Shown: piece after piece, positions 11,742 to 21,958 of the stretch | How positions within the stretch are numbered: the stretch's first letter is position 1 | Layout of the letters: each line of letters starts with the position of its first letter | Source of the DNA: Escherichia phage ZCEC14 | Length of the DNA: 64,000 nt | Strand: one strand, 5' to 3' | Sequence record: OP168898.1 | Notes under the pieces: model-generated | Told to the model about the DNA's origin: nothing | The model's input: only the letters and a program-made list of their open reading frames with translations | Database searches by the model: none | Program-made: the position numbers and the translations under genes

Positions 11742-12203
11742 ATGATTATTAATGAAAGCTCTTGGCACTATAAATTATTCAAAATGTTTAATGATGAATG
11801 GAAACGGCCTAAGACACTATGCGCGTATTTTTGGTCTATTGTTATTCCTACATTTTTCGTTTCTTTTTTCGGATGTACTATACTCGCAGGTCTAACTATC
11901 ATCTGTGCAGAAATCATACAGAAATGGTTTATTTTTGGTAGTTTATGGACTCTTATTCCATCAGCATTTGTACTTGCCATTTTGCTTGTTTTACTTATTA
12001 TTGGTTCATTTGTTATTCCTGCACAACTGCATGAAAAATATAAAGATTATAAATGGAAAAAGGATTATGCTTTACATGTAGAAAATATTGATAGGGCGTA
12101 TAAAGGTTTACCTCCTATTCAACCCAAGAAATCTATTATCGTCGAATTTTTAAAAGCTCGTAAAGCTAAAGTATGTCCTGTTATTGAATATAAGGCTGAA
12201 TGA
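11742..12203 (+). CDS. hypothetical membrane protein
   Basis: 153 aa; two or three hydrophobic helices. Confidence 0.5.
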   Translation: MIINESSWHYKLFKMFNDEWKRPKTLCAYFWSIVIPTFFVSFFGCTILAGLTIICAEIIQKWFIFGSLWTLIPSAFVLAILLVLLIIGSFVIPAQLHEKYKDYKWKKDYALHVENIDRAYKGLPPIQPKKSIIVEFLKARKAKVCPVIEYKAE

Positions 12204-13213
12204 TGAAAACAGTAATGAAAAGCTATTTTGGTAGTCATCTTTATGGAACTTCTACTCCAGAATCTGATGTAGATTTTAAAGAAATCTTTGTTCCTCCTGC
12301 TCGCGATATTCTTATCGGAAATGTTAAAGAGCATATGAGTAAAAACACTAACAACACATCATCTAAAAACACTAAAGATGATATTGACCATGAACTATAC
12401 AGTCTTAAGTATTTCTTTAAATTAGCAGCAGACGGTGAAACTGTAGCATTGGATATGCTTCACACTCCGCCTGAACTAGTAGTTAAATCTGATTTGCCTG
12501 ATGTATGGAAATTTATCCAAGACAATCGTTCACGGTTTTATACAACTAACATGAAAGCCTATTTAGGATATGTGCGCAAGCAAGCTTCTAAATATGGTGT
12601 TAAGGGTTCTCGTTTGGCTGCATTGCGTAATGTATTGAAAGTAGTTAATCAAATCCCCGATCAGTGGGTTGATTACCGAGAAGATGGAACACAAGGACAA
12701 CGTCGTACTAAAATTGTAGATATTAAACATCGGCTTCCTGAAAACGAGTTCTGTGAATGGGTATTCCATAACCACGAGAAAACAGGTCCTCAAACGTTCT
12801 ATACTGTTCTTGGACGTAAGTACCAAACCACCTTGTCTTTAATCGAGCTCAAGCAATCTCTGAATAAGCTCGATGCGGAATATGGTGAACGTGCTCGTAA
12901 GGCTGAAGCTAATGAAGGTATTGACTGGAAAGCTCTGAGTCATGCTTATCGCGCAGGGTATCAATTGATGGAAATCTACCAAACAGGTGATTTGGTGTTC
13001 CCATTGCGCGAAGCCTCTATCATTAAGCTGATTAAAGCCGGTGAATTACCATTTAAAGAAGTTCAAGAACTTCTTGAAGATACTGTTGATTTGGTTGAAG
13101 TCCTAGCCATCCAGGCAGCTAAGAACGGTATGCCTGATAAGGTAGACATGAAGTTCTGGGACAAGTTCGTTGAAGAGGTATATCTTGAAAACCACCGAAG
13201 TTATTATAAATGA
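12200..13213 (+). CDS. putative Pol-beta-superfamily nucleotidyltransferase
   Basis: 337 aa; N-terminal GSHLYGTSTPESDVDF fits G[SG]-x9-DxD motif, later VALDML acidic residue. Confidence 0.5.
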   Translation: MMKTVMKSYFGSHLYGTSTPESDVDFKEIFVPPARDILIGNVKEHMSKNTNNTSSKNTKDDIDHELYSLKYFFKLAADGETVALDMLHTPPELVVKSDLPDVWKFIQDNRSRFYTTNMKAYLGYVRKQASKYGVKGSRLAALRNVLKVVNQIPDQWVDYREDGTQGQRRTKIVDIKHRLPENEFCEWVFHNHEKTGPQTFYTVLGRKYQTTLSLIELKQSLNKLDAEYGERARKAEANEGIDWKALSHAYRAGYQLMEIYQTGDLVFPLREASIIKLIKAGELPFKEVQELLEDTVDLVEVLAIQAAKNGMPDKVDMKFWDKFVEEVYLENHRSYYK

Positions 13214-13214
13214 T

Positions 13215-13240
13215 AGGGAGCCTTCGGTCTCCCTTTTTGT
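13215..13240 (+). terminator. intrinsic terminator, TTCG loop
   Basis: AGGGAGCC-TTCG-GTCTCCCT followed by TTTTT. Confidence 0.65.
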
Positions 13241-13261: not shown

Positions 13262-13291
13262 GTTTACAAGCATAAAGCTTTATGGTACTAT
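13262..13291 (+). promoter_or_regulatory. T4-type early promoter with shared leader repeat
   Basis: GTTTAC 13262-13267, -10 TACTAT 13286-13291, leader TACAACTATCAACT. Confidence 0.65.
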
Positions 13292-13326
13292 ACAACTATC
13301 AACTGATGTGGATTTGGGGGAATAAA

Positions 13327-13476
13327 ATGAAAACTACGTTAATTGAAGTAAAAAAGTTGATTGACACAGAAGAGATTTCAGCTTGTTTTGAAAATTTCTT
13401 AGAAGATGCAACTGAAGATAACGCAGTTTATCTCGCTCAGAAAATTATAGAAACATATTTGGAGCAGAATCAATGA
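13327..13476 (+). CDS. hypothetical small protein
   Basis: 49 aa from ATG 13327 (SD GGGGG); track ORF started inside the promoter. Confidence 0.4.
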   Translation: MKTTLIEVKKLIDTEEISACFENFLEDATEDNAVYLAQKIIETYLEQNQ

Positions 13477-13736
13477 CAGTTTACGTAGATGTTTTAATGA
13501 ATCATGGATGGAAACTTCGCGGTCATCCAACTAAAAATTGTCATATGTTCACTGATGGAGATATTGAAGAGCTTCATGAAATGGCAGAAGCAATAGGAAT
13601 GAAACGCTCTTGGTTTCAAGATAAACGCATTAAACATTATGACTTACACGCGCGCCGCCGCCAAAAAGCCGTAGAACTTGGAGCTGTAGAAGTATCTCGT
13701 CGCGAAGCAGTAAAAATTTGGCGAACATTAAAATAA
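13473..13736 (+). CDS. conserved hypothetical protein (MTVYVD...EELH...WFQ...HYDL pattern)
   Basis: 87 aa; locally GC-rich segment; no function assigned. Confidence 0.5.
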   Translation: MTVYVDVLMNHGWKLRGHPTKNCHMFTDGDIEELHEMAEAIGMKRSWFQDKRIKHYDLHARRRQKAVELGAVEVSRREAVKIWRTLK

Positions 13737-15238: not shown

Positions 15239-15766
15239 ATGAACGCTAAAGATATTTTCAACTTGGTAAATTACAACGATGGCAAATTTAAATCTGAAGC
15301 GCAAAGCAAGTTCTTTAACGACATCTCAATCGGAGGTGAAATCACTGTTGATGGAGGACAAATTTACAAATCCCGTTGGAATTGGATCGTTATTATTGAT
15401 GAGATCGGTATTGTAGAAATTTACAAGAATACGAATAAAAATCGTACATTACACTGGTCTCGTGATACTAACGAACAGTACAAAAAGGATAAAGCATCTA
15501 AAATGTCTCGTGTAACTCAAGAAGATATTGAGTTCATCAAGAAAGATATTTTAATGTATGATAACTTAATTGCTGAAGAGCAAGCTGTTATTGATAAATT
15601 TGACGAGATTAAAGCTTCTCGTGAAATTCCTGATTTTATGAAAGAATCAGTAAATGAACGATACTCTCTCATTTCAGAGCGTATTGAAACTTACAAAAAG
15701 CAAAGAGCTGAACGCCAAAATACTCTTCGGAAGTTTGAAGAACGGTTAAAGACGGTACTCGCATAA
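15239..15766 (+). CDS. hypothetical protein
   Basis: 175 aa. Confidence 0.5.
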   Translation: MNAKDIFNLVNYNDGKFKSEAQSKFFNDISIGGEITVDGGQIYKSRWNWIVIIDEIGIVEIYKNTNKNRTLHWSRDTNEQYKKDKASKMSRVTQEDIEFIKKDILMYDNLIAEEQAVIDKFDEIKASREIPDFMKESVNERYSLISERIETYKKQRAERQNTLRKFEERLKTVLA

Positions 15767-16236: not shown

Positions 16237-17127
16237 ATGTCAGTAGTAATTAATAATGTCAATGCAGTAATTAAATCTTTAGTTAATAAAAAAATGATGA
16301 ATGAATGGACTGTACTTCGTCGTGGAGAGCCAGATAAATTTTTTCATAGATTTAACCCAACTTTGGATTTGAATGTTATTGATAAAGATGTTCATGCCGA
16401 AATTTTAGATAAGTTTAAAGTTGATATTGGATTTGGATTAGAAAAACATTTACAGCGAACAAATGGATCTGGAATGAGTTTATCTAATCGCATTATGAAA
16501 GCCCTTAATAAAATTGGAGCATTGTCTCGTATTAACGCGAGTGAAATCCTTCGTAATTATAATAAAGGATACGACCTTTATGGTCGACTAATGCCGAAAT
16601 TATCATTTGACCAAATGATCGCAGATTTGTGGGAAAATCAACGACGATTATTAGCATTAGGCGCTCGATTAGCTAAAGGTCTAGATAAACAAATGATTTT
16701 TAAGACCAATAATACAGAAGACCTTAAATGCTTTAAATTTAGTACTCGTGGAGATGATTATTACGTCAGAGCTCACTCTACAGATTATGTTAATATGGGG
16801 CATCATCTCTGTTTAGCTTTTGAAGTTTTAAAAGAAGCTGGAACATTAGAATATTCATCTGGTGCTAAATGTCCGATTGGTTCAAATTGCATTTTAATTT
16901 ATCGCCCAGATGAATCCAGTTCATCTAAATTACCTACAAAACCTGTACCAGTTCGTAGTAACGAAAAACATTCTGAACAAATTGCTTATTTTAATAAGCA
17001 GATTGAAGAGCTAAATATTTCTATTCAGCAATATGATGATGAAATTTTCAGACTATCTGGATTGAGTAGTAAAGCTAAATCTGAGCGTGAAAAGTTAATT
17101 AAAATTGTCGATTTACTTAAATCTTAA
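16237..17127 (+). CDS. paralog family member 1 (coiled-coil C-terminus)
   Basis: 296 aa from ATG 16237; first of four tandem related ORFs. Confidence 0.5.
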   Translation: MSVVINNVNAVIKSLVNKKMMNEWTVLRRGEPDKFFHRFNPTLDLNVIDKDVHAEILDKFKVDIGFGLEKHLQRTNGSGMSLSNRIMKALNKIGALSRINASEILRNYNKGYDLYGRLMPKLSFDQMIADLWENQRRLLALGARLAKGLDKQMIFKTNNTEDLKCFKFSTRGDDYYVRAHSTDYVNMGHHLCLAFEVLKEAGTLEYSSGAKCPIGSNCILIYRPDESSSSKLPTKPVPVRSNEKHSEQIAYFNKQIEELNISIQQYDDEIFRLSGLSSKAKSEREKLIKIVDLLKS

Positions 17128-17135
17128 GGAACACC

Positions 17136-18158
17136 ATGAAAACTCGTTCTCAAATTGAAGATATGGTTCGTAATGCCAGCTATACCCGTGATGTTATGAC
17201 ATTTTTGTGTGAAAATAATTTAGACCCTGATAAAGTTAATCGTGTTATTCATCACTTTAAGTATACGAATAGCAGTGAATGGGTGCGTAATTTTAGTAAA
17301 GCAGGGTATATTACACAAATGACTGCTCGTGAACAGCTCACCGATTTCTGTAAAACTATTGATTATAAAAATCCTTTGATTGTTCAAGGCGTTGGTCAAA
17401 GTAAGGTCGATTTATCATCTGGATTTTTCAATCCAAATCATTATCGTATTGAATGGAGATTTATTGCTCTGTTCCGTAGACAATTAAAGCAAATTTTGTC
17501 TACTGCTAGTCGATTAAAAGGCTCTGATATTAACTTAAAGAATCTGAAATTTGATGGTTATACTCTTCAGATGGAAGTAAGACCGTTAAAAGAAAATAAT
17601 AGAACTGCGCGAATTAGCTTTAAACCTAATACAAAAAATTCTCTTTCAATTTGTGAATGCCTTAAATCGCAGTTGACAGAAGCATTTAAGTATATGGATG
17701 TTGTTGCTGCTGTTCAATCTAAGATTTTACCTCGTTTTGAGCGAAATTGGGAACATACAACAACATATGAACTTGATATGATCGTTTCATTTAAATACGA
17801 TTTTTTGAGAAAGGACGAAGTCACACAAGAGAAAAAGCAGGAAGTGCAAGATAACTTAAATTTATCCAATTACTCATCAAACGATCCTAAATTTTGGATG
17901 TATAGTTCAGGTAATAAAGATGCATGGAAATTCAATAAAGTGAATTTTCTTCCTATTGAAAATCCGAGTCTTAAACCTGTTGAAAAATGGCATGCAGATG
18001 CGATTGAGAAGTCTATCAAGGCAGTAGATGATGAACTCGTTGAAGCAACTAATGAAGTGTTAGAAGCTGAAAAGGTGTTAGAAAAAGCTCAAGAAAAAGT
18101 CAAAAATCTCACGAAGCAACGTTCTAAACTGAACAATGCACTAAATGCACTGAACTAG
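17136..18158 (+). CDS. paralog family member 2
   Basis: 340 aa; RIEWRFIALFRRQLKQILSTASRLKGSD shared with member 3. Confidence 0.55.
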   Translation: MKTRSQIEDMVRNASYTRDVMTFLCENNLDPDKVNRVIHHFKYTNSSEWVRNFSKAGYITQMTAREQLTDFCKTIDYKNPLIVQGVGQSKVDLSSGFFNPNHYRIEWRFIALFRRQLKQILSTASRLKGSDINLKNLKFDGYTLQMEVRPLKENNRTARISFKPNTKNSLSICECLKSQLTEAFKYMDVVAAVQSKILPRFERNWEHTTTYELDMIVSFKYDFLRKDEVTQEKKQEVQDNLNLSNYSSNDPKFWMYSSGNKDAWKFNKVNFLPIENPSLKPVEKWHADAIEKSIKAVDDELVEATNEVLEAEKVLEKAQEKVKNLTKQRSKLNNALNALN

Positions 18159-18187
18159 TTTACTTTACCACAAGGATGTGGTATAAT
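18158..18187 (+). promoter_or_regulatory. T4-type early promoter
   Basis: GTTTAC 18158-18163, -10 TATAAT 18182-18187; same CCACAAGGATGTGG element as at 61849. Confidence 0.65.
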
Positions 18188-18215
18188 GTTCTTACTTTCT
18201 ACTGAGGAGATTAAT

Positions 18216-19217
18216 ATGACTCGTAACGAATATATCAAATCATTTAATAGCGTTATTGATGATAAAGTTAAACCTATGTCTAGTCAGAATAACGTTATTT
18301 CCATTATCAATCAATGGCTCAATAATATTGATGTAAGCATTGTTTCTTCCAGCAAATTTATTCATGAAGTTCATAAAATTTCTAGTCGCGAAGATAAAGG
18401 TGATATTAAGGAAACCTTTAAAGGTTCTCGTCTTCTTTCATATTTAGTTAATCAGGATATTCTTGGTAATTTTGGGAAAGAAATTAAACGAACCAAAGAT
18501 GTAGTAGGATATAATTGGTTTGGTGATGTTAATTCTTATCATCTTAATAATAAAGAAGACCCTGAGAATATTTTTACTCGTCGTTGGATTAGTAATTTCA
18601 GACTTTTCAAAAAGCAAATTCTAAAATCAGCTTCTAAATTATGCTATGGTGATTATCGTCAAATTCATCCTTGGGCTTCTGACATGATTATCATAAAAGA
18701 ATATGAACTTGATAAAAATAAAGCAGCTATTTTTGTGAATTATGGATTTTTTACACCAGAAGCTAATCAAAAGAACATTAATAAATTTTTCTCAATTGCT
18801 AGTGATATAACTCGTCAATTAGAGACTGCATTATTTTGTATGGAAACGGTAGAAAATATTCATACTTATCCTTTTAAGAATATGTGCGGCTGGGAAGGAT
18901 ATAAAATTGTAGTTAGTCTCCGTGAAGTAAAGTGCGCGTACTCACCGACTGATAAAGAAATTTACCAACAAAAATGTGATGAAATTGTGAATACTCCTAA
19001 AGAAGAAACTACCCTTGAGGAACTAATGGAATGTCTTGATGATTCACTTGAACCGGTAGAAATTCGTCCAGAAGTTATTGCACTAGAAAAAGCTTATAAA
19101 GAAGTTCTAGAAATTTCTAATAAAGCACAGAAAGAATATGAGCAGGCTAAAAGGATTTGGGAAGAATCTGTTAATCGCCTGGATCGTCTTGAACAAGCTT
19201 TACAGTTAATTAAGTAA
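18216..19217 (+). CDS. paralog family member 3
   Basis: 333 aa from ATG 18216; TRRWISNFRLFKKQILKSASKLCYGD. Confidence 0.55.
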   Translation: MTRNEYIKSFNSVIDDKVKPMSSQNNVISIINQWLNNIDVSIVSSSKFIHEVHKISSREDKGDIKETFKGSRLLSYLVNQDILGNFGKEIKRTKDVVGYNWFGDVNSYHLNNKEDPENIFTRRWISNFRLFKKQILKSASKLCYGDYRQIHPWASDMIIIKEYELDKNKAAIFVNYGFFTPEANQKNINKFFSIASDITRQLETALFCMETVENIHTYPFKNMCGWEGYKIVVSLREVKCAYSPTDKEIYQQKCDEIVNTPKEETTLEELMECLDDSLEPVEIRPEVIALEKAYKEVLEISNKAQKEYEQAKRIWEESVNRLDRLEQALQLIK

Positions 19218-19269
19218 TTTAAAGCCAAGGATGGCTCGGAGTATAAATCATTAACCAAGTGAGAAGAAC

Positions 19270-20199
19270 ATGAAAACTCGTAAACATTATATTGATTATT
19301 TTGATAGTCTTATTACTAAACACCGTAATTATCAGATTGGGCACAGAGCAGTAATCAATAATATTCTTCGTGATTTCTTTCAATATGTTGGCCAGGAAAA
19401 TCATATCTGTAAAGATACTCAAAACGCTTATTCTCATTCGTTAGGCAATTTGCTTGAATGGTTTAAACGTTCTCGTCTGTTATCTTCTACTGTAGCTAGT
19501 GATAACATTAAAAACTTTATGAAGCCGAGCTTCATTAAATCTGAGACATCTATAACCGATTTGGTTGAATTTACTATTGTTAACGATGTTAAAAAGACCC
19601 ATTTGGCTGATTGGTTATCTACCATTCCCGAAACTAAATTTGCTGATAAATTCGCTTGTCAATTCAATGACCAAGTGAATATGCTTTTTAAGCATGCTCG
19701 TAAACTATTTACCGCGGGCGATGACCGTACAAATACAGTTCATGTTAAGGATTGGGTTATTGCTGATGAAGTAACACACAAGCCAGGTGGTTCATCAGTA
19801 TTAATTAATATCCAGGTTCCTTATTATTACTCACGTAATCTCGGCACCATGACAGCTAGAGAAATTAATAAGCACAACAAAATTATTCGTTCGTTGTCTT
19901 ATAAACTCTGCACGATGGTGGAGATGATGGACGTAGTGGAAATGTATGACGAAACCGAAGATAATGGTTCAATGCTGTACAGTTCACGCATTCTAATTAA
20001 ACTGAAGAACCCTAATACATATAAGCAAGTTGTAAAAGAACCTAAAGTAGAAAAGGTTGATAACTTGAGCGAAGAACGTGAATATCTCAAATCTCGACTG
20101 GTTGAAGTTGAAGCCCAAATTGCAGAACACACCAAATTGTTAAAAGCTCTTAATGCAAAAGCAAATGGTTTACGTAATGCTATTGAGGTATTGAAATGA
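19270..20199 (+). CDS. paralog family member 4
   Basis: 309 aa; MKTR N-terminus as member 2, C-terminal coiled coil. Confidence 0.5.
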   Translation: MKTRKHYIDYFDSLITKHRNYQIGHRAVINNILRDFFQYVGQENHICKDTQNAYSHSLGNLLEWFKRSRLLSSTVASDNIKNFMKPSFIKSETSITDLVEFTIVNDVKKTHLADWLSTIPETKFADKFACQFNDQVNMLFKHARKLFTAGDDRTNTVHVKDWVIADEVTHKPGGSSVLINIQVPYYYSRNLGTMTAREINKHNKIIRSLSYKLCTMVEMMDVVEMYDETEDNGSMLYSSRILIKLKNPNTYKQVVKEPKVEKVDNLSEEREYLKSRLVEVEAQIAEHTKLLKALNAKANGLRNAIEVLK

Positions 20200-20510
20200 A
20201 AAAGCGTCTATTAGAAGACATTGCAGCTTCAAGTAATTCTAGTCTAATTAAAATTATTATGGCTGGTGAAGAAGACGATTTGGAAATGCGTGGAAAGATT
20301 CATGGTTGTGATGATTATAGCAGCCCTATTAATTGGGATTCTGTAATGGTCATGGTTGAACGCCGCGAACGTGCTTCTAAAAACGTTCCTAATTGCCCTG
20401 AATGTGGAACTGAACAGGTCCAATTGATCCATTGGCAGACTAATAATCTTCGTTATAAATGTCGCCATTGTAAACACCGATTTGACCGAGAAGAAAATGA
20501 CAAAGCGTAA
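20196..20510 (+). CDS. hypothetical zinc-ribbon protein
   Basis: 104 aa; CPECG...CRHCKH. Confidence 0.5.
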
Positions 20511-20739
20511 AGAATATATGGAAACTGCTGAAAAGGCAGTCCGTGAATTAGCAATAGCTTATTATAATGAACATGGTAAATTTCCTGATAGATACAGCGT
20601 GCTTAAATCTGCTTTAACTCGTTCATATAAAAATATGCTATCAGAAGTAAGTGATATTATATACAAACATAAAGAACAAACGGGCCAAAGTCTTGATTAC
20701 GACGAGACTTTTAAACGAGTACTAGGAATTAAGGAATAA
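20482..20739 (+). CDS. hypothetical protein
   Basis: 85 aa; start uncertain (20482 or 20497). Confidence 0.4.
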
Positions 20740-20740
20740 T

Positions 20741-21004
20741 ATGTTTAAAGTATATGGTTATGATAGCAACATTCATAAATGCGTGTATTGTGATAATGCA
20801 AAACGTCTTTTGACCGTGAAGAAACAGCCGTTTGAATTTATCAACATTATGCCGGAAAAAGGTGTTTTTGATGATGAGAAAATTGCTGAGCTTCTGACGA
20901 AACTAGGTCGTGATACTCAAATCGGTTTGACAATGCCACAAGTATTTGCTCCTGATGGAAGTCATATTGGTGGATTTGACCAATTACGGGAATACTTTAA
21001 ATGA
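20741..21004 (+). CDS. nrdC: glutaredoxin/thioredoxin NrdC
   Basis: 87 aa; MFKVYGYDSNIHKCVYCDNAKRLL matches T4 NrdC. Confidence 0.85.
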   Translation: MFKVYGYDSNIHKCVYCDNAKRLLTVKKQPFEFINIMPEKGVFDDEKIAELLTKLGRDTQIGLTMPQVFAPDGSHIGGFDQLREYFK

Positions 21005-21216
21005 TGCTCGAAGGAACTGATTATATTCATGATTACCGCGGAAGCGCGGTATATGTAGGTGATGAGGTTGCAGTTTACTACGGGTATGGAACTTTGATGA
21101 CAGCCAAGGTTATTCAAATTAAAAATAACCGTGCTAAACTTGAAGTTTATTATTCTAATGGTGAAAAGTCTATTTCTAAATGGAAATATGGCGATTGTAT
21201 GGTCAAACTGGGGTAA
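21001..21216 (+). CDS. hypothetical protein
   Basis: 71 aa; ATGA overlap with nrdC. Confidence 0.45.
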   Translation: MMLEGTDYIHDYRGSAVYVGDEVAVYYGYGTLMTAKVIQIKNNRAKLEVYYSNGEKSISKWKYGDCMVKLG

Positions 21217-21218
21217 AT

Positions 21219-21389
21219 ATGATTTACGATATTAGTGTATCAAGAACTCCATCAATGGTTACTATTCCAGCTGAAGAACTAGATCGTCTTCAGAAAATTG
21301 AAGAGCTTCTTTGGGAAATTGAATCTGATTTGCCATCAGGATTAGAATCCTGGATTGATTATGAAGAACTTAATAAGCTTCGGGGTTAA
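21219..21389 (+). CDS. hypothetical small acidic protein
   Basis: 56 aa from ATG 21219. Confidence 0.4.
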   Translation: MIYDISVSRTPSMVTIPAEELDRLQKIEELLWEIESDLPSGLESWIDYEELNKLRG

Positions 21390-21511
21390 ACCCTGGTGGG
21401 CGGCTAGATGGGAAACTGTAGAGCCAGAGCCGGAAGAACCGGTTTACACTGATGAAGAAACAGTATATAATGAACCAACGATAAATGACTTAATTGATAT
21501 GGAGATGGGAC

Positions 21512-21958
21512 ATGATTACAGTAGATAAGTGGTTTAGAATTAATCGTGCTGATACAGGACTGTGTAATTACTGGCCGGAACTTAGTGCAGGTGCTGTCTT
21601 TAAAGTTCGTGAACTTGCAAAAGAATGTGAAGATGATATAGAGCCTGATACTGGAATTATTGAAATTGAACTTTCTGATGGAAAGATTATTAATATCTAC
21701 GATAAGCCAATTACATATTGGTGTTTGTGGAATACTGAATCAGTCGAAAATGGCGAAATTGAAGAAGTTGTAGAGCGAACTAATCAAGTTGTTCAGAAGC
21801 CTAAAGCCGATTTTCAAGGTGAACGTATTTCATACGCATTAGCTAAATTAGCTGCACAAGAAAATAACGATGGCTATGAAGGAAATTTAATGCAAGCTGC
21901 CGCAGAGTACATTGAATGGCTTGAAACTCAAAATTCTTTTTCTGACAGGGCATTTTAA
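21512..21958 (+). CDS. hypothetical protein (between nrdC and 49)
   Basis: 148 aa from ATG 21512 with SD GGAG; track start was TTG. Confidence 0.45.
   Translation: MITVDKWFRINRADTGLCNYWPELSAGAVFKVRELAKECEDDIEPDTGIIEIELSDGKIINIYDKPITYWCLWNTESVENGEIEEVVERTNQVVQKPKADFQGERISYALAKLAAQENNDGYEGNLMQAAAEYIEWLETQNSFSDRAF

Follow-up and report, generated by a model that had tools for sequence, protein, structure and literature searches.

The locus described here raises the question of whether four adjacent genes of a T4-like phage are related to one another and, if so, what such a set of relatives does. The window, by which is meant the whole stretch of DNA that was analysed, comprises 64,000 nucleotides (nt) of Escherichia phage ZCEC14 (sequence record OP168898.1). 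Judged by sequence, it is Tequatrovirus (T4-like phage) DNA: the 4.6 kilobases (kb) around the array are 96-97% identical at the nucleotide level to many Tequatrovirus genomes, with 464 records covering at least 80%. The array is collinear with T4 map positions 48.9-52.9 kb, where it lies on the opposite strand, and its members, designated A, B, C and D, are assigned on this basis as the orthologues of T4 nrdC.6, nrdC.5, nrdC.4 and nrdC.3. All four are on the + strand: A at 16237-17127 (296 amino acids, aa; 97.7% identity to T4 NrdC.6 over 259 aa), B at 17136-18158 (340 aa; 95% identity to T4 NrdC.5), C at 18216-19217 (333 aa; 90.7% identity to T4 NrdC.4) and D, which belongs to a divergent allele class, at 19270-20199 (309 aa; 60% identity to T4 NrdC.3). 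Each has an ATG start with a GAGG/AGGA-type ribosome-binding site upstream, and the lengths agree with those of homologues in public data. A first-pass annotation had described these genes as a tandem array of paralogous, diversifying early genes, and what it said of their layout holds: there are four adjacent + strand open reading frames (ORFs) of similar length (296-340 aa, the others being 309 and 333 aa), and two of them, B and D, start with MKTR.

The reading that we favour, with a probability of roughly 0.55, is that A to D are oligomeric early proteins which act by binding to defence proteins of the host and blocking them, the paralogues having different targets. Counter-defence activity is established for the orthologue of B, and for A, C and D we infer it.

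The relationship among the four proteins is remote. In an all-versus-all BLASTP comparison of the six pairs, C and D alone are significantly similar (E = 1e-8, with 27% identity across 226 aa); for each of the five remaining pairs E is 0.2 or more. Pairwise alignment had been suggested as the check on paralogy, and for these five pairs it does speak against it; to reject paralogy on BLASTP alone would nevertheless be wrong, since profiles and predicted structures reveal homology. Family alignments were built from protein searches and related loci and were compared with hhalign, and this links all four proteins. A first pass with shallow profiles connected C with D (E = 3e-14) and B with C (E = 5.5e-5), the comparisons of A with B, C or D being not significant (E = 0.03-0.08). 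The B profile was then enlarged with three distant relatives (40%, 28% and 26% identity) from a hidden Markov model (HMM) search of 1.84 billion representative proteins, and in this form it aligns with a merged C+D profile at E = 2.5e-9 and 96% probability over 259 columns, residues 47-340 of B being paired with residues 62-333 of C. It is the addition of these distant relatives, together with the construction of a de-redundified merged profile, that joined A to the family: A against merged, de-redundified B+C+D gives E = 2.2e-5 over 79 columns (A66-145 with C45-142), an alignment that covers both of the motifs described below and for which the reversed-profile controls give E = 0.16 and 0.7. 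The significant alignments are collinear and lie outside the coiled coil. We conclude that A, B, C and D are all homologous, with A the most divergent and B linked by profiles only, and hence that a tandem paralogous array, as originally proposed, is present.

Two motifs recur along the four proteins. The mid-protein motif reported in the first-pass annotation occurs at equivalent positions in all of them and can be written as [WF]..[QF]...[LI][LF]..[AG][SA][RK]L..G.D. On the + strand, it reads WENQRRLLALGARLAKGLD in A (W132-D150, 16630-16686), FRRQLKQILSTASRLKGSD in B (F113-D131, 17472-17528), FRLFKKQILKSASKLCYGD in C (F128-D146, 18597-18653) and FNDQVNMLFKHARKLFTAGD in D (F132-D151, 19663-19722). 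In the AlphaFold2 models it falls in helices 124-133, 135-145 and 148-151 of A and in helices 119-130, 132-142 and 145-148 of C. A second common motif, FK.SRLLS...A..IL..F.K, is found 40-60 residues upstream of the first in all four proteins (LNKIGALSRINASEILRNYNK in A, FSKAGYITQMTAREQLTDFCK in B, FKGSRLLSYLVNQDILGNFGK in C and FKRSRLLSSTVASDNIKNFMK in D), and in the models it forms a helix-turn-helix-like element (helices 82-92 and 95-107 of A, 61-69 and 72-84 of C).

The tails of the four proteins are heptad-like and charged, as had been noted. Over the last 49 residues the heptad a/d positions are 86-93% hydrophobic versus 17-26% elsewhere (shuffle p = 0.0000-0.002), and 33-39% of the residues are charged. 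The heptad helix, a predicted coiled coil, is encoded on the + strand at 16978-17124 in A (a/d 86% hydrophobic, shuffle p = 0.001), 18009-18155 in B (93%, p < 0.0005), 19068-19214 in C (86%, p = 0.002) and 20050-20196 in D (86%, p = 0.0015). In the model of A it appears as helix 246-295, following a linker (227-243) whose predicted local distance difference test (pLDDT) score is below 50, and in the model of C as helix 285-332, following a linker of the same kind (262-287). Two further proteins from the search of representative proteins, P0230 (173 aa) and P0236 (157 aa), carry a near-identical NrdC.5 coiled-coil segment (...AIEKSIKAVDDELVKATNEVLEAEK...KLNNALNALN) on unrelated N-terminal parts; either the NrdC.5-type tail is apparently exchanged as a module, or the two proteins are fusion or assembly artefacts.

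Predicted structures place these elements in a common frame. The AlphaFold2 models of A (pLDDT 76.5) and C (pLDDT 83.7) have about 14 secondary-structure elements in the same order: about six N-terminal helices; a short beta segment, longer in C; a helix, a second helix and a short helix that carry the main motif (124-151 in A, 119-148 in C); a beta-hairpin; a long helix; a second beta-hairpin; the low-confidence linker; and a terminal helix of about 50 residues. Both models were compared by Foldseek with BFVD, a set of predicted structures of viral proteins. That of C retrieves NrdC.3 of phage fPS-65 (D family; E = 1.4e-7) as well as NrdC.6 of phage JS10 (A family; E = 8.4e-5 over 344 columns), and the A model retrieves fPS-65 NrdC.3 at E = 1.4e-3, so that the A and C models each retrieve the other's family over at least 300 aligned columns. 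Their lists also share eight uncharacterised T4-like phage proteins of about 300-370 aa (E ≤ 2e-3), from phages of Enterobacter, Pectobacterium, Acinetobacter, Klebsiella, Erwinia, Yersinia and Serratia. A, C and D are thus predicted to have the same fold and domain order, and the common architecture is an N-terminal helical bundle, a motif-bearing helix-turn-helix-like element and helix pair, an alpha/beta core, a disordered linker and an amphipathic heptad helix.

Pfam, PHROGs and GenBank keep these proteins apart, as if nrdC.3/nrdC.4, nrdC.5 and nrdC.6 were three unrelated families. C and D both fall in phrog_1435 over their full length (E = 2.8e-166 and 1.1e-114), A in phrog_2257 (E = 1.8e-151, residues 1-296) and B in phrog_2351, which is kept as a separate group. 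B also matches Pfam DUF7235 (PF23882) along residues 1-340 with 434 bits against a gathering threshold of 30 bits (E = 3.7e-130), A, C and D having no match to PF23882 at E ≤ 1. Precomputed Pfam labels assign PF26899 to homologues of A, and PF26897 to homologues of C and to the D-derived part of the hybrid protein P0056 (see below). No enzymatic domain was found in sequence searches of Pfam, NCBIfam or PDB, DUF7235 being the sole family match, and hits to designed helical repeats, APC6, DndD and PgrA were rejected as due to composition or coiled coil. The label "thioredoxin", which stands on many GenBank records of nrdC.3-nrdC.6, was likewise rejected and has evidently spread from the locus name nrdC.x: A-D have no thioredoxin or glutaredoxin match (Pfam at E ≤ 1, NCBIfam at E ≤ 0.1) and no CxxC in their translations, and the models of A and C, consisting of helical bundle, alpha/beta and coiled-coil parts, do not have a thioredoxin fold.

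A, C and D are therefore best described as remote homologues of NrdC.5/DUF7235 and not as members of PF23882 as it is now defined. B is the orthologue of T4 NrdC.5, with the same genomic position and a full-length PF23882 match, and the architecture, the two motifs and the coiled-coil tail of NrdC.5 also occur in A, C and D; these, however, form separate families and have no detectable BLASTP similarity to B. The literature searched held no paper describing a relationship among nrdC.3, nrdC.4, nrdC.5 and nrdC.6, and none mentioning DUF7235.

Two records of the A family differ in length from the gene in the window. In the T4 reference NC_000866, nrdC.6 (L001, 12008-12894) is annotated with 275 aa, with a frameshift after residue 259 relative to A; the remaining 37 residues, the coiled-coil end, are encoded in another frame with 97% identity. 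The T4 annotation used in the HIDEN-SEQ preprint gives nrdC.6 as 891 nt. This disagreement in frame would reflect either a sequencing error or a strain-specific, tail-truncating frameshift in the reference. In Shigella phage Sf25 a NrdC.6 homologue of 378 aa (P0120, BFVD A0A2K9VMF6) is annotated 82 residues longer than usual, possibly because its start was mis-called or because the nrdC.7 frame upstream has been fused to it.

The first-pass annotation gave the function of the array as unknown, which for B is outdated. An evolved T4 clone with a deletion was unable to infect strain ECOR17, an effect due to the Dsr1 system, and T4 nrdC.5, expressed alone, restores infection of dsr1-carrying cells (Srikant, Guegler and Laub, eLife 2022, PMC9391042). 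At 95% identity to T4 NrdC.5, B may be expected to have the same anti-Dsr1 activity. Dsr1 is a SIR2 NADase fused to a tetratricopeptide repeat (TPR) sensor. Avs7 and further effectors have the same sensor, whose reported ligands are the major capsid proteins of phages (PMC12803255).

The neighbours of the array point in the same direction. The HIDEN-SEQ preprint (bioRxiv 10.1101/2025.11.20.689424) identifies T4 nrdC.1 as an inhibitor of Septu and bas37_0203 as one of Druantia type III. The preprint's gene table gives bas37_0203 a length of 528 nt and places it upstream of the nrdC.6 orthologue with one gene in between, and this size and position identify it as the nrdC.8 orthologue, corresponding to 15239-15766 in the window; it was thereby rejected as a member of the array. 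The preprint, a transposon study, also classes nrdC.3-nrdC.6 as non-essential in T4 and Bas37 on laboratory Escherichia coli. The array thus belongs to a non-essential early accessory block in which at least three genes of the window match known inhibitors: nrdC.8 (Druantia III), nrdC.5 (Dsr1) and nrdC.1 (Septu). That these are T4-like early genes, as first proposed, is borne out by the collinearity with T4 nrdC.6-nrdC.3, by early-type promoter-like sites and by the description of nrdC.5 as an early gene (PMC9391042). The accompanying suggestion of a counter-defence role stands for nrdC.5, which neutralises Dsr1, and is strengthened by the proven inhibitors nearby, whereas for A, C and D it would hold by extension.

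The array is old, and its composition varies among genera. At the same position Mosigvirus (phage moha, loci L005 and L006) has A-, B- and D-type genes, and Dhakavirus (Bp7) has A-, B- and C-type genes in the same order. Since the C and D lineages both occur outside Tequatrovirus, the duplications probably predate the split of Tequatrovirus, Mosigvirus and Dhakavirus and were followed by loss or exchange. In Acinetobacter phage Acj61 (Twarogvirinae), the adjacent genes Acj61p120 and Acj61p121, just upstream of nrdC, agree in length with two of the structural matches (E5E4A1, 330 aa, and E5E4A2, 304 aa). Their sequence signals are borderline, the best HMM match being that of p120 (E = 1e-4), which also has a heptad tail; Acj61p118 was rejected as a third Acj61 member, having neither an HMM signal nor a heptad tail. 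The survey of copy number that had been called for thus gives A-B-D in Mosigvirus, A-B-C in Dhakavirus and an adjacent pair in Acj61. Tandem duplication, as claimed, is supported in so far as the genes are paralogues, but it is ancient (at most 27% identity among the copies, and older than the genus split) and not a recent expansion.

Orthologues of the array diverge between genera much faster than the flanking genes. Identity between the window and Mosigvirus or Dhakavirus is 34-48% for A, 22-24% for B, 45% for C and 77% for D, as against 78-91% for the flanking nrdC.10, nrdC and gp49 in the same genera. Within Tequatrovirus the nonsynonymous rate (dN) of A-D is about two to five times that of neighbouring genes, and the pairwise Nei-Gojobori ratio of nonsynonymous to synonymous rates (dN/dS) is 0.08-0.31. 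D exists in three allele classes in the phage collection, with about 95%, 76% and 59% identity, T4 having an allele of the 59% class. Against T4 the synonymous rate (dS) of D is about 1.1 and that of the flanking genes about 0.1, and such a high dS relative to the flanks points to variation of D by whole-allele replacement and not by point-mutation drift. In close orthologues of A and B residues from about 60 to 180 are almost invariant and the first 60 or so vary, variation in B extending also to the region after the core and to the linker. The description of the genes as a diversifying family is therefore apt with respect to rapid orthologue divergence and the allele swaps at D, but the gene-wide dN/dS gives no sign of pervasive positive selection.

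Allele replacement is not confined to D, and the array region is a fine-scale mosaic. The nrdC.4 gene of the window is 100% identical to that of phage IME537, the surrounding 4.6 kb being 96.6% identical. Allele replacement between genomes that are otherwise about 96% identical is seen at nrdC.11 (12200-13213), nrdC.3 (19270-20199) and nrdC.2 (20196-20510), with amino-acid identities of 67-87%, 60% and 72-77%, respectively, and dS of about 0.6-1.9. One protein, P0056 (299 aa), is a hybrid in which residues 1-129 correspond to NrdC.5 146-272 and the rest to NrdC.3 from about 134 to 309, joined at an FN(K/Q)VN microhomology. An out-of-register deletion, in which nrdC.4 and part of each neighbouring gene were lost, produced this fusion and marks the array as prone to such events. 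In-register recombination between paralogues was rejected as its origin because residue ~272 of B is joined to residue ~134 of D, and the hybrid is uninformative on homology.

The mechanism that we propose is as follows. Each paralogue would be made early in infection and would self-associate through its C-terminal coiled coil, as suggested by the heptad periodicity; an amphipathic helix of 50 residues, flexibly tethered, would hardly be stable as a lone monomer, and for this reason oligomerisation is the likely role of the tail. The globular part would then bind one host defence protein and block it stoichiometrically, by analogy with the action of DSAD1 on DSR2, and the copies would be specialised on different defence targets. 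Such specialisation would explain why all copies are kept in a fixed order, why orthologues drift rapidly and why whole alleles are exchanged. Other defence proteins with a TPR sensor of the Dsr1/Avs7 type would be the most obvious candidate targets of A, C and D.

Several observations weigh against this proposal. B is the only member with an experimental phenotype, and the published result for NrdC.5 is a genetic rescue and not Dsr1 binding. Oligomerisation is predicted from sequence periodicity, and B is tied to the family by profile comparison alone. Paralogues at no more than 27% identity may differ considerably in function. None of the four genes gives a signal of gene-wide positive selection, and the pairwise dN/dS values cited above do not point to an arms race. 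Nor does variation locate the supposed target-binding surface, since the central region is nearly invariant among close orthologues of A and B. Finally, among the defences and isolates tested in the HIDEN-SEQ preprint (bioRxiv 10.1101/2025.11.20.689424), none is described in its main text as making nrdC.3, nrdC.4 or nrdC.6 conditionally required.

Much of this can be turned into a different account, which we regard as possible but doubtful: the four proteins are homologous, NrdC.5 alone acts in counter-defence, and A, C and D have other early roles in host takeover, for example, the helix-turn-helix-like motif might contact host or phage nucleic acid, or the machinery of transcription or replication, and the coiled coil might serve for dimerisation, as it does in many DNA-binding proteins. 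The low identity among the paralogues lies in a range where function often changes, the upstream motif is helix-turn-helix-like in both models, and the three genes concerned lack a defence phenotype in the main text of the preprint; a near-invariant centre in close orthologues of A and B is also more in keeping with a partner, from the cell or the phage, that is itself conserved than with an immune target that varies. What argues against such roles is that all four genes are dispensable on laboratory strains, that they sit among proven anti-defence genes, and that their divergence between genera, far above that of the flanking genes, typifies accessory genes that govern host range, in contrast to core takeover functions.

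A bolder version of the defence-blocking reading, and an unlikely one, is that NrdC.3-NrdC.6 and their structural relatives beside nrdC across the Straboviridae are a single scaffold for blocking host immune sensors, namely a coiled-coil oligomer displaying a virion-derived, tail-terminator-like alpha/beta core; each paralogue would jam a different pattern-recognition receptor, such as TPR proteins of the Dsr1/Avs7 type, and the array would mirror a host receptor family. Slightly less probable still is the related alternative that the alpha/beta core is a re-used virion fold, similar to lambda gpU and thus of the tail terminator or completion group to which SPP1 gp17-like proteins and T5 p142 also belong, and that the proteins are early decoys which occupy host sensors of phage structural proteins without activating them: what Dsr1 reportedly senses is the major capsid protein and not a tail terminator, and PDB sequence searches show no similarity to any solved virion protein. 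Lastly, the notion that unrelated genes were recruited to one locus and resemble each other through AT-rich composition and a coiled-coil tail is disfavoured and very improbable, for although most BLASTP pairs are not significant, coiled coils easily give spurious matches and the B-type tail of P0230 and P0236 shows that a tail can move as a module, the profile alignments are collinear and lie outside the coiled coil (B47-340/C62-333; A66-145/C45-142), the reversed-profile controls are not significant, independent models share the order of about 14 elements and retrieve each other's families, and both motifs stand at equivalent positions in all four proteins.

The reading of A to D as blockers of defence proteins invites comparison with known systems. 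DSAD1, the DSR2 inhibitor of an SPbeta-like phage, rescues phage from a defence-associated sirtuin, as does NrdC.5, and the likeness extends by analogy to the proposed action, in which an early phage protein would bind a SIR2-type defence protein and prevent its activation. The two differ in that DSR2, the target of DSAD1, senses the tail tube, whereas NrdC.5 counters Dsr1, whose TPR sensor senses the capsid protein; nor are tandem paralogues or a coiled-coil tail described for DSAD1. No DSAD1-like protein surfaced in the Pfam, PHROG, PDB or Foldseek results, the DSAD1 sequence itself not having been compared. Anti-defence islands, such as T4 dmd-tifA-adfA against toxin-antitoxin systems and those against CRISPR or restriction-modification, are likewise clusters of non-essential, early, variable genes, several of which neutralise different defences; they usually consist of unrelated genes, whereas here there are four paralogues in an order that is fixed across genera.

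What is new is a superfamily that unites three families (phrog_2257/PF26899, PF23882 and phrog_1435/PF26897), the genes and one function being already known. The advance is modest and incremental, and no new kind of system is involved. Even in T4, which has been studied more than any other phage, about half of the genes are without a function. A, C and D become candidate defence inhibitors that are cheap to test, and the structural frame of variable N-terminus, conserved core and oligomerising tail may help in asking how NrdC.5 blocks Dsr1, a mechanism still poorly known. The array is syntenic across T4-like genera as far as Acinetobacter phages; targets found for its members would therefore probably extend to many candidates for phage therapy, and knowledge of these targets would help to explain their host ranges.

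The surrounding genes follow the T4 order. Upstream of the array are nrdC.11, nrdC.10, nrdC.9, nrdC.8 and nrdC.7, and downstream are nrdC.2, nrdC.1, nrdC (thioredoxin), pin, gene 49 and nrdD, all on the + strand. The nrdC.8 orthologue (15239-15766, +; 175 aa, 97.7% identity to T4 NrdC.8) has a charged, helical-looking C-terminus and is separated from the array by nrdC.7 alone, and the nrdC.1 orthologue is found at 20497-20739 (+; 80 aa, 98.8% identity to T4 NrdC.1). No fifth paralogue was detected in the window with any family HMM at E ≤ 1.

A consensus scan found T4-early-type promoter-like sites (TTTAC.-17-TA..AT, with an upstream TG) at several intergenic positions on the same strand, these being consensus matches only. 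One predicted site lies in the B-C gap directly before C (18159-18187, +; TTTACT-17-TATAAT with an upstream TG, 10 of 12 consensus matches). A hairpin with a stem of 7 base pairs, TACCACAAGGATGTGGTA, at 18166-18183 overlaps this site, and similar short hairpins are present on the opposite strand near the ends of genes B and C (18134-18152 and 19225-19239).

Two positions in the accessory block vary in gene content. Between nrdC.11 and nrdC.10, after a strong terminator-like hairpin at 13215-13234, there are two ORFs of 64 and 87 aa (13282-13736) that have no counterpart in T4 or several relatives and are present in locus L008, which marks a variable insertion point. Between nrdC and pin (21001-21528) T4 genes 49.3 and 49.2 are absent and two ORFs of 71 and 69 aa stand in their place, 49.1 alone being retained in that region with 90% identity; the place has the look of a variable cassette site. 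OLD is inhibited by gp49.2 in phage T6 (PMC13096335), and the window lacks the anti-OLD gene known as 49.2 in T4. Elsewhere in Acj61, Acj61p064 and Acj61p065 (L014, 1229-3938) place a nicotinamide phosphoribosyl transferase next to a ribose-phosphate pyrophosphokinase, a pair that resembles the phage NAD+ reconstitution pathways used against NAD-depleting defences such as Dsr1.

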